From Octopus vulgaris (taxonomy: Eukaryota), in assembly GCA_951406725.2 (NCBI GenBank), contig OX597838.1, forward strand, positions 2,542,001 through 2,606,000: 64,000 bases of DNA. The letters are read 5' to 3'. Under the pieces are notes generated by a model. The model searched no databases. It was not told the DNA's origin and saw only the letters and a list, made by a program, of their open reading frames with translations. Each line of letters opens with the position of its first letter. Position 1 is the first letter of the stretch. This document shows, piece after piece, positions 10,438 through 63,065 of the stretch. The translations under genes were made by a program, and so were the position numbers.

Positions 10438-10895
10438 GAAATTCGGGGTGAGTACTTGATAATTATAAGCACCTGTGTATACCGTTTGGTGGTGTAGGTG
10501 GTGGAGTAAATTGTTCAAAATAAAATAAAAACATGATGCGAAGGATTCAGCGGTACATATGTTTCGGGCCTTTATTAGACAGATTTATAACAATGCATAA
10601 TGTATGTCTGTGGCCTTCTTCAGCCGCGCACAACAGCTTCCACAAGGACATGTGTTACATCAAAAATTCTTGGTTGGGGATGCAAATCCTCTCATTCACG
10701 TACGACATAATGCGGCAGCAGCATAGAATTGAAGCGTCCATCTCTTTCTTCTCTCAATGTAGAATCTGTTGTGCGCGGCTGAAGAAGGCCACAGACATAC
10801 ATTATGCATTGTTATAAATCTGTCTAATAAAGGCCCGAAACATATGTACCGCTGAATCCTTCGCATCATGTTTTTATTTTATTTTGAACAATTTA
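10438..10895. mobile_element. palindromic Penelope-like remnant with perfect 130-bp inverted arms (10507-10636 / 10766-10895)
   Basis: arms are exact reverse complements around a 129-nt spacer; (TA)n on both flanks; each arm carries a hammerhead motif. Confidence 0.8.
10775..10852 (+). ncRNA. type I hammerhead ribozyme motif (mirror copy on - strand at 10550-10627)
   Basis: GCGG CUGAAGA A GGCC[41 nt]GGCC C GAAA CAUAUG UA CCGC: stem I GCGG/CCGC, palindromic stem III ACAUAUGU, GUA cleavage triplet; A.C mismatch at the base of stem II. Confidence 0.75.
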
Positions 10896-10938
10896 TATAT
10901 ATATATATATATATATATATATATATATATATATATAT

Positions 10939-11112
10939 AGGGAGAGTTTACGAAAAAACAAAAGACGAAGGCAGGTGGTGTACAAAACAAACAGATGTAT
11001 TAGTATAACGCTCAGGAATAGAAAAAGTCGTTTACGTTTCGAGCCTACGCTCTTCTACAGAAAGGGACACAGAAAATACAAGGAGAGAAAAAAAATGTGT
11101 GTAGTGGCTAAA
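10939..11112 (-). mobile_element. PLE-like short repeat (family P) with minimal hammerhead variant at 11029-11064
   Basis: minus strand CUUU CUGUAGA A GAGC GUAG GCUC GAAA CG UA; homologous to 37770-37940 and 49214-49390; abuts (TA)n. Confidence 0.75.
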
Positions 11113-59365: not shown

Positions 59366-62300
59366 AATAATAATAATAATAATAATGATGATGATGGTGG
59401 AGGTGGTGGTGAAGGTGTATATGAATTTGTGTACGTATTTCAGTATTATTGTATGTAAATATGTATCTAATAATATACAAGGTGGTGAACAGTTGCTCCA
59501 GCATCGCCACAGTGTAATGACTGAAGCAAGAAAGAAATACAAGATACATATATAGACACATACATACATACATACATACACACACACATACATACATTTC
59601 ATATATATTTCTGTTCTTAAAACATTATTTTGTAATTTGAGTAAAAATCTGTTGCTATCTCTAGCAGGCGAAAGACCATGTGGGCGCTACGTAGGTGGCA
59701 CATTTGAATGTTATACTCTAAAGACTATGGAATACTCTGCGGTCTATGTTGTAAACAAATGTCACAGTCTCAAGGGAAGAGATTTGCTAAGCATATAAAC
59801 ATTTCAGATGATACAGCCTCAATGTGACGTGTGAATGCTTATAGCAATCGTTCTTGACATACAGGAACATAGACAGATAGACAAACAGACAGATAGATAA
59901 ATAGGTAGATAGATAGATAGATAGATAGATAGATAGATAGATAGATAGATAGATAGATAGATAGATAGATAGAGAGAGAGAGAGAGAAAGAGAGAGAGAG
60001 ATAATAAGAGAATGAGAGAGGAGGTAAGGGAAGGAGACAGAGATTATACAGATAATGTGTGTGTGATTTGATGATGATGATGCTAATGATAATGATGATG
60101 ATGATGATGATAATGATATCATAGTAATAATGATAATAATAATAATAATAATGATAATAATAATTGCAGTAGATAGCTATAATGATGTTCCCTACCAGCC
60201 ACCCCATCGTGACACTATTAGCCTAAGCACCCCAATCCGCAGCTAAAACTTTTAAACGCATACACGCCTAAGCGTTCGAAATCAATGCTAAATATGGAGT
60301 AGGTCAGCTAAAACGCCCACGCCATTTATACACTCACACACAGACACACACACACACATGCTTCCGTGAATACTACTACGCGACTGGCGCTCTCTTGCAA
60401 TAAGAACCACAAATACTTTACACAATTTCGAGTTGACAAAGATCAAACATATGAATTACCCACGTGATCTTTTCCTCTGCCTATCTCCTATATTTCTTCT
60501 CTCTTTCCTCTCTTTTCTTCTCATCATGGGAATCTCTTTTTTGCATCAGAAGAAGATCCTTTTCCGAAACGTTAAACTTTTAGTCGCCAAATTTTACTCC
60601 ATACTTTTTTTCTCCTCCTTTCAGAGTGAAACTAATAACATTAACGGTTAACGTCGCTTGGACGACTTTTCTTTTTTGTTTATGCTTCAGTTCATTTTCG
60701 ACATTGTCATTCGATTTGCTCGATAGTATATATATATATATATATATATATATATATATATATATATATTTATATATAGATTCTTTGTAAAGGAGTTGTT
60801 AACTCGAAATATCAAGGCTAAATAACTATTTTTAATGAGAACTTCAATAGGATGATGTTATTCATTTTTACTTTAATGCTGTTCTTGCATTATTTCGGTA
60901 TTCTTTGACAATGTGGTTCACTACATGTTCCAGCCGGCTCCAAACAAATGATAACACAATCCTACGCACACCCAAACACACGCACTCACTAGATATAGAC
61001 ACAAATGCACACACACATACACACACACACACATAAATATATATGAAGATATATATGCATGTATATATATGAATATATGCATATAGATATATAAATATTC
61101 GTAGTATATATATTTATATATGATATATGTATATAGATACATATTTATATATATATATATACATATATATGTATTTATATATGTATATATGCATATATAT
61201 GTATATATATATATATATATATATATATATATATATATATATATATATGCATATGAATATATGCATGCGTCTACAAACCAACTATATTATACAAAATTAT
61301 GTCTAATATCAAATGTGTTTTAATAAATATTTGTGAAAATTAAAAATGAAATTCTGAAATCCAAATGGCATGTATGCATGTATTTATATGTATGTATATG
61401 TGTGCGTCTGTGTGTTTGTGTTGTGTGTGTGTGTGTGTGTGTGTGTGTGTGTGTGTGTGTGTGTGTGTGTGTGTGTGTGTGTGTGTGTGTGTGTGTTTGT
61501 GTGTGTATGTGTGTGCGTGTGCAGACAATAACAACAACTAAAACAAATAATATGAATGATATACAAAAATAACTATATTTGCACATTAGCAAATTAAGCG
61601 AAGTTATAATATTGCAGCGGAGCTTCATGAATCAACAGCTGAATGGATGACGTGAAAATTGCAATATGATAGAAGAAAATTTGAATTTTAATATAGTATA
61701 ATTGAACTGCGATGAAATATCTATAATTCAAATTATAGATTGGCACTAATCTATATATTATATATATATATATATGTATGTATGTATACCTATATGTGTA
61801 TTTTCTCTCTCTCTCTCTATATATATATATATATATATATATATATATATATATATATATATATATATATATATATATATATATATATGTACGTGCATGT
61901 ATGTATGCATTTACATATATATATATATATATATATATATATATATATATGAAGCCTATATTTGCATATAGAGACATATATGTGGATAGTAATAAAGACA
62001 CAAGCACGCACATGGTAATGTGTGTCACTGAACATTTTGTATGATTGACGAGTCCTAGACGCCCACAAAATTTTTACGTCACGAAGACCTAAATCAAAAG
62101 TTGTATATGTGTGTATATATATATATATATATATATATATATATATGCGTGGGTGTGTTTGTGGGTGGGTGTATACAGAGTTAGAGTTCAGGTAAAAATT
62201 TCGTCTAATGCCGTAATATAAGAGGTGTATACATTTGTTACTCAACTTTTCTTACCACCAATTTGTATTGTATTTTCCTATGATGAATGGCTATAAGTGA

Positions 62301-62978
62301 TTTATCACTGAGCGGGTACATATATAGTATGAAGAAAGAATACTCGGGCAAAAAGTTGGCATCAGCTTAGACAATGGAATTTACATGATTAAACATGATG
62401 TCAGCATTATTACAATAGATTTTCTAGAATACAGTGTATCGTCAGAAATAAGGGAGTAATGAAATGTACACTCTCTTACAGCTGTTTTAAGAATAGTTGC
62501 TTATGTGGTACATGTCTCAGCGAACCAAAATAAGCTACCTATATACTAGTGGACTGTACCGTCTTCTTCGCGATAAAATGTGAAGTAGATATTTAGTAGG
62601 TGAATTTAGTAGTTAACAACTCCATCAGCAAAGAGAGAATGAGATGCACCGTGTTTGCATCTGTTATGGAAACAGCTGTAAGGAACTATTTGCACATCTC
62701 CCGACTACTTTACTTCTTACCATGCACTCTATTCGAACCCTCTTCTGTAACAACTCAGCATTTATATTTATTTATACAAGTTTCATAATTCAAAATTATA
62801 ATAGTTGTTTACTTGTTTATCCTTTCTACACTATACATACATACATATATATATATATACATACATACATACATACATGTATATATATATATATATATAT
62901 ATATATATATATATACAATGAAAATGGAGAATACATACACAGAATATTCAATATATTTATTATAATTGTCAATTCATG

Positions 62979-63065
62979 TTGCCTACGCACGTTTCGGTTT
63001 ATTACTTAAATCCACAATTAAATTGCATTATGACCTTGAGAAGGCAAGATCTTTCATCAGGGCAA
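62979..63065 (-). ncRNA. type I hammerhead ribozyme motif with large stem II insert (PLE-like remnant)
   Basis: minus strand UUGCC CUGAUGA [58 nt] GAAA CGUGCG UA GGCAA: perfect 5-bp stem I, near-palindromic stem III ACGUGCGU, GUA triplet; base of stem II imperfect; ~60 nt from a (TA)n tract. Confidence 0.65.

Follow-up and report, generated by a model that had tools for sequence, protein, structure and literature searches.

The 64-kb stretch of octopus DNA analyzed here (hereafter, the window) raises the question of why so short a region should hold several unrelated hammerhead-like motifs beside (TA)n, two of them built as palindromes whose arms might mask the ribozyme in read-through transcripts. 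We propose, with a probability of about 90%, that what we see are 3' ends with hammerheads, left by Penelope-like elements (PLEs; families A, P and C) and by a further unit (family B), all of them in (TA)n, that the palindromes came from the insertion process, and that their arms would then decay without host selection. Among the counterpoints, no autonomous partner was found for B, and the model leaves the rarity of inversion in P unexplained. The palindromes and the repertoire are thus very probably known PLE and retrozyme biology, and the one part that may be new, judged from the letters of the genome, is a conserved U at core position 6 of the P hammerhead.

Hammerhead-like motifs and the elements that carry them

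Simple repeats make up 32% of the window, and a general repeat search was swamped by microsatellites. A relaxed hammerhead descriptor gave four matches at a score of at least 11, where 20 block shuffles of the window averaged 0.15, and recovered the hammerheads of families A and B on both strands, plus a decayed motif. These scans bear out the hammerhead-like motifs that had been predicted at 10775-10852 (plus strand) with a mirror at 10550-10627 (minus strand), and at 52339-52397 (plus) with a mirror at 52167-52224 (minus). No Rfam family reached its gathering score over the window; the 150 listed of 449 matches were all to microRNAs and driven by microsatellites, with no hammerhead among them, and hammerhead models run against the A and B arms returned nothing at E ≤ 10. 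In minimum-free-energy folding, a monomeric hammerhead was formed by B and not by A, C or P, and we treat all families as candidate hammerheads only, each with a putative NUH cleavage site. The features are as follows.

10438..10508, minus strand: tail of the left A copy, 71 nt, in which the pLTR continues toward the ORF of the next unit; present in this arm only
10509..10761, minus strand: left A copy, 3' UTR end and pLTR with the hammerhead at 10550-10627
10762..10893, plus strand: right A copy, shorter and tail-less, with the hammerhead at 10775-10852
10940..11110, minus strand: P copy 1, Neptune-type pLTR, core CUGUAGA (~11029-11064), stem I weakened
35666..35761, minus strand: decayed hammerhead-like motif D, core CUGAAAA, palindromic helix III
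37770..37914, minus strand: P copy 2, of an older subfamily, core CUGUUGA, decayed
49218..49376, minus strand: P copy 3, core CUGUGGA, decayed
52113..52277, minus strand: inverted B arm, hammerhead at 52167-52224 with stem II short by one base; adjoins (TA)n
52279..52573, plus strand: sense B arm, part of a 469-bp tandem unit, hammerhead at 52339-52397; (TA)n at its end
62920..63110, minus strand: old PLE end of family C, hammerhead at 62979-63065, helix III ACGUGCGU; adjoins (TA)n

The original prediction counted at least four hammerhead families with short palindromic stems III. The A and B motifs stand, while the P copies in the window are non-canonical and its C copy is degenerate. We saw no sequence kinship among A, B and C outside the core, in line with the earlier claim. 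All of A, B, C and P have a palindromic helix III, but in B it is long (AUUGGACCAAU) rather than short. Listed with motif D is a weak GIY-YIG-like remnant at 36437-36688 (plus strand; E = 0.004). At 2436-2500 (plus strand), CTGACGA...GAAAC runs directly into (TA)n, a possible hammerhead remnant cut near its cleavage site.

We searched the assembly (2.8 Gb, 227 contigs) for copies of each family. The A locus at 10438-10893 consists of two copies of a young PLE, both truncated from the 5' side to their 3' ends: the left tail adjoins (TA)n at 10291-10437, the right copy adjoins (TA)23 at 10894-10939, and the apparent spacer of the palindrome (10641-10761) is further 3' UTR of the left copy. The right-copy hammerhead has a CUGAAGA-A core, a long stem II, helix III ACAUAUGU and a GUA site. 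A 30-nt segment of this hammerhead recurs exactly at 1,525 places in the genome, and the best 40 genomic copies are 99-100% identical to the A arm. Between pLTRs ~4.4 kb apart lies an ORF with reverse transcriptase (RT) and GIY-YIG domains (836 aa, an 842-codon frame), open in full in three of five long loci, the remaining two being 5'-truncated. The protein carries YRDD and VIY..YIG motifs; Pfam found no RT or endonuclease (EN) match in the 836 aa, its top homolog carries PF01541, and no PDB relative was found.

The single ORF with RT and C-terminal GIY-YIG, flanked by hammerhead pLTRs and accompanied by tandem and inverted truncated copies and a tail at one end, is the organization of EN+ PLEs. 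Within these, comparison with the motifs in section 11 of Craig et al. 2021 (PMC8557442), and by eye with two Hydra rows of its Fig. S1, points to the Hydra clade of C-terminal EN+ elements. A shares with them PADKTGN (DKT for DKG), a CNCRCASEC linker (CxCX5C) and CQLC..E..N..CIH (CxxC/CxH around E and N), in addition to the pLTR hammerhead, the (TA)n target, the inverted 5'-truncated copy and the one-end tail. It departs from Hydra elements, which are generally shorter than 3 kb, in its ~4.4-kb unit with a long, microsatellite-rich 3' UTR, and also in RWA for RWK, a tail of 71 nt against 30-40, and a long stem II insert; RWK and a length under 3 kb are given there as typical features (PMC8557442). 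With its many near-identical insertions, A is apparently an active young PLE with Hydra-type motifs.

Family B, with 599 genomic matches, has an ORF-less unit with a 469-bp period, found as permuted partial tandems and many inverted pieces, several of them without the hammerhead. The 3' ends of B are concentrated at a small number of AATTATA/AGTTATA-like sites leading into (TA)n. Searches with four PLE proteins gave no match in 30 B loci, and no autonomous partner ORF was found. One B unit (L033:1380-1460) holds, upstream of the hammerhead, a GTTCGAATC motif that resembles a Pol III B-box; Pol III read-through of B is doubtful because T-runs follow this motif. With no ORF and a type I hammerhead in each of its tandem units, B resembles a retrozyme. 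It shares with metazoan non-LTR retrozymes (PMC7229834; bioRxiv 10.64898/2026.07.22.740005) an AT-rich unit free of ORFs, a partly tandem arrangement and a type I hammerhead predicted to fold as a monomer. Unlike them, it has a unit of 469 bp, against a reported 150-450 bp (PMC7229834; bioRxiv 10.64898/2026.07.22.740005), and its copies are mostly one or two units long, accompanied by inverted pieces in the manner of PLEs and ending in (TA)n.

The C copy in the window, which has a degenerate stem II and was missed by both descriptors, is ~80% identical to other C copies, and GIY-YIG or RT remnants lie in 5 of 30 C loci. C also forms divergent pairs. On this evidence C is an old PLE family, decayed in the window. 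The link to PLEs that had been suggested is thus borne out by intact, source-type A copies with RT and GIY-YIG and by GIY-YIG or RT remnants beside P and C copies.

The commonest interspersed repeat in the window, in which we saw no hammerhead, is a SINE-like dispersed family of ~170 nt and ~80% identity (176-348, 19974-20137, 31787-31956, 34598-34755, 43281-43419 and 47591-47780). Transposon remnants lie at 8743-9042, 24044-24244 and 25787-26566, comprising a mariner HTH (Pfam HTH_48) and, by eye, Tc1-like and LINE-RT-like frames.

Insertion in (TA)n and the probable origin of the palindromes

The predicted association with (TA)n holds in the copies compared: the 3' ends adjoin (TA)n in 11 of 12 tail-less A copies, 10 of 18 tailed A copies and 23 of 30 P copies, compared with 9% of random window positions, and the B and C copies of the window do so as well. 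A microsatellite bias of PLE insertion is described in PMC8557442, and (TA)n targeting by PLEs is already published. The (TA)23 at 10894-10939 is common to the 3' ends of A and P, so that two unrelated PLEs lie tail-to-tail, and at another locus (L047) an A pair sits beside a B copy.

Both palindromes are real and fold into duplexes of ~132 bp (A; z = −26) and ~165 bp (B; z = −35). As predicted, the hammerheads point outward, and folding indicates that read-through on either strand would form the duplex. The further claim that transcripts starting between the arms would self-cleave fares poorly for B, in which the arms are only a few nucleotides apart and leave almost no room for a start.

Divergent pairing proved to be common and family-dependent. 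The first 100 of the 1,525 exact A hammerheads include 28 divergent, one convergent and three tandem pairs and 38 solo motifs, where 0.8 close pairs would be expected by chance, and the spacing of A pairs among them ranges from 143 to 5,139 nt. Among the first 100 of the 599 B matches there were 12 divergent pairs, one tandem pair (467 nt) and no convergent pair. P, by contrast, is almost all solo, with one divergent pair closer than 5 kb among the first 100 listed, from which it follows that inversion depends on the family. The 5'-inverted architecture itself is already published for PLEs. An inverted 5'-truncated copy with a one-sided tail is described in PMC8557442 (Craig et al., Fig. 2 legend), and pairs of minimal hammerheads on opposite strands 100-700 bp apart are reported in PMC4209133.

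One arm was tailed and the other tail-less in all eight A pairs examined. Alignment of A pairs gave 36 junction rows, 14 of which came from an internal inverted repeat, leaving 22 true junctions. The short repeat lies in the T-rich A 3' UTR (locus L159, ~3973-4078) and mimics an inversion junction in alignments. The 22 junctions are spread along the element, 10 with an overlap of 0-3 nt and 12 with filler, and four cut inside or past the ribozyme. The A tail asymmetry and these junctions could inform how PLEs make inverted copies.

Comparison of each arm with its partner and with other copies suggests how the arms originate and age. In young pairs the two arms frequently have private variants in common: no other copy was as close as the partner arm in five of eight A pairs, and the arms of the window B pair differ at 1 of 165 positions, whereas they differ by at least 2.4% from 35 other copies. 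Among B pairs overlapping by at least 100 nt, six of nine had at least seven other copies as close as the partner, and five of seven old C pairs had at least eight. This pattern fits arms that come from one template at birth and then decay neutrally. For the window B pair and one old C pair (L143), whose arms are mutually closest, gene conversion or selection for the duplex could alternatively be invoked.

In the insertion model that we favor, the GIY-YIG endonuclease would nick (TA)n, the RT would prime on UA-rich sites 3' of the hammerhead, and each end of the target would receive the 3' end of an element, both arms being copied from one source template. Insertion would thereby probably lay a second 5'-truncated copy back-to-back with the first, an arrangement in which hammerheads point outward by construction. 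A PLE protein acting in trans probably mobilizes B, and the arms, once in place, would decay with no selection by the host. The ORF links, copy numbers, divergent excess, free spacing, A tail asymmetry and 3' ends at fixed UA-rich sites all support this origin. The hammerheads themselves likely serve the processing of source-element RNA, weakly and as dimers, rather than the host; in PMC4209133 the in vitro activity of minimal hammerheads is low even as dimers. Dimerization through helix III as the cause of inverted pairs is disfavored because the P helix III is palindromic, yet P is mostly solo, and because Naiads invert without canonical hammerheads (PMC8557442).

Alternative readings of the palindromes

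The alternative that fares best is itself compatible with the proposed insertion origin. It holds that the palindromes, if read through, act as generic substrates for ADAR hyper-editing or silencing, in which the ribozyme plays no part. Heavy editing affects palindromic repeats in frog and Penelope in lizard (PMC5625713), and generic hyper-editing of the duplexes is plausible if they are transcribed. Contigs of A and B occur in sequencing runs that we guess to be RNA. However, no listed contig bridges either locus-specific junction in four runs per palindrome, although holes in contigs prove nothing. All A>G differences on A are also present in large DNA-like runs, and the two on B lie in a single contig with 10 other differences, at a site where DNA cover is thin. 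Nor did the 43 of 151 candidate open frames that were scanned reveal a host exon; the sole Pfam match among them was a mariner HTH, and no host gene was identified. For the flanks L163 and L164, the screen covered four PLE proteins. On balance, we consider activity of this kind rather unlikely. In one of the runs guessed to be RNA (X5), a contig of depth 122 that matches the window at 10438-10893 connects the A tail with part of a hammerhead in inverted orientation; the junction is absent from the contigs listed for the two DNA-like runs and may come from a source copy that is expressed and inverted at its 5' end.

Much less probable, and in our judgment very unlikely, is the host-selected switch of the original prediction, in which the ribozyme of a read-through transcript would be hidden within the duplex and cleavage toggled by ADAR editing or small-RNA processing. 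Both duplexes are very stable, octopus hyper-editing is strong and tied to inverted repeats (PMC5625713), and masking could matter for B, since B alone folds as a monomeric hammerhead. The A monomer gives no hammerhead fold even when unmasked. Editing of the core adenosines would be expected to damage the ribozyme rather than free it, judging from the core conservation described in PMC3088659. Outward geometry is the default of these families, breakpoints fall without regard to the ribozyme, and old arms have for the most part diverged as unrelated copies do. With divergent pairs as the family norm, spacing and breakpoints free and old arms mostly drifting, an editing- or siRNA-coupled switch is unsupported; divergent pairs also appear to show no excess over what PLE 5' inversion alone would produce, in a qualitative comparison. 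As probable ordinary products of PLE insertion, the palindromes are not worth pursuing as a switch.

That the palindromes are fold-back artefacts of the assembly is hardly credible: no listed contig from other runs spans the junctions, where again holes prove nothing, but the arms end at different family-specific sites (tail versus no tail in all eight A pairs), they differ by mismatches, dozens of spacings were seen, and the architecture is published for PLEs (PMC8557442).

A Neptune-type family with U at core position 6

One family has a hammerhead that departs from the consensus. The canonical core C3 U4 G5 A6 N7 G8 A9 is replaced in P by CUG-U-N-GA, and all three window copies carry U at position 6 together with damage in stem I or helix III, for which reasons they are not canonical. 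An exact 28-nt P pattern has 10,905 matches in the genome, 10,771 without A6 and 134 with it, so A6 is about as rare in P as other point changes. The first 100 of the 10,771 non-A matches have 98 U, one C and one G, and any of the four bases occurs at N7. Among 29 copies selected through their 3' UTR, position 6 is U in 26, C in two, G in one and A in none, and 17 of these 29 have a GIY-YIG remnant upstream in sense. Conversely, 16 of 30 loci picked by endonuclease have the P motif in sense, with U6 in 13 of 15 when the seed is excluded.

The majority sequences of two P subfamilies, based on 29 and 15 copies, disagree within the 36-position hammerhead only at N7 and outside it at 40 of 144 positions (28%; P = 6 × 10−4), or, for the 3' flank alone, at 18 of 85 (P = 0.012), a contrast that is somewhat inflated because the 15 copies were chosen partly for a recognizable motif and the flanks are T-rich.

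Upstream of the GIY-YIG domain, the linker CSRPRCRTC..YI.QTGRRL resembles the Neptune rows of Fig. S2 in the supplement of PMC8557442, and an RT remnant lies further upstream in the same sense (RVT_1, E = 9 × 10−5, below the curated cut-off); the parent element is frameshifted in both long loci fetched. With a CX2-5CxxC linker before a C-terminal GIY-YIG and an RT upstream in the same sense, P is, by these remnants, the pLTR of a Neptune-type PLE. An RT fragment beside one P copy (L112) was traced to another PLE family, which showed no consistent association with P and was rejected as its parent. Like the Neptune-clade elements of Cervera & de la Peña 2014 (PMC4209133), P has a CX2-5CxxC-type linker, GIY-YIG and a DKG-type RT, a minimal hammerhead in which an extra base precedes stem II and helix III is palindromic (ACGU), and copies that are mostly solo truncated ends. 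It differs from them in having U at core position 6 nearly throughout, the core variant given in the text of that paper being U3-A8.

The closest precedent for a natural hammerhead substituted at this position is that of phage Bcep176, an A6C variant with kobs <0.1/min (Perreault et al. 2011, PMC3088659), and the text of that paper mentions no A6U. Whereas the Bcep176 hammerhead is a single phage motif, the U6 of the candidate P hammerhead is fixed across subfamilies in more than 10,000 animal genomic copies. We found no literature report of a natural U6 core; one may appear in Lunse et al. (PMC5785218), or in figures or supplementary files of PMC4209133 or PMC3088659, which lay outside the search. 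The U6-type pattern had 12 matches in metagenomes, none with convincing hammerhead stems.

It is possible, at somewhat less than even odds, that Neptune-type source elements have kept the U6 hammerhead under purifying selection across subfamilies while spreading it to more than 10,000 sites, either as an active variant or as a non-cleaving element with a role such as RT recognition or dimerization. What PLE hammerheads do is described as unclear in PMC8557442, and P, with U at a normally invariant position and the rest conserved, offers a clean test of their function: if the U6 motif does not cut, it would be kept for something besides cleavage. Standard CUGANGA descriptors would miss P entirely. 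A loose hammerhead pattern revealed no motif of its own within 1.5 kb of a further PLE family (L192-L221), which has a Neptune-like linker, 3' ends rich in (ACT/ACC)n and open frames reaching 796 codons.
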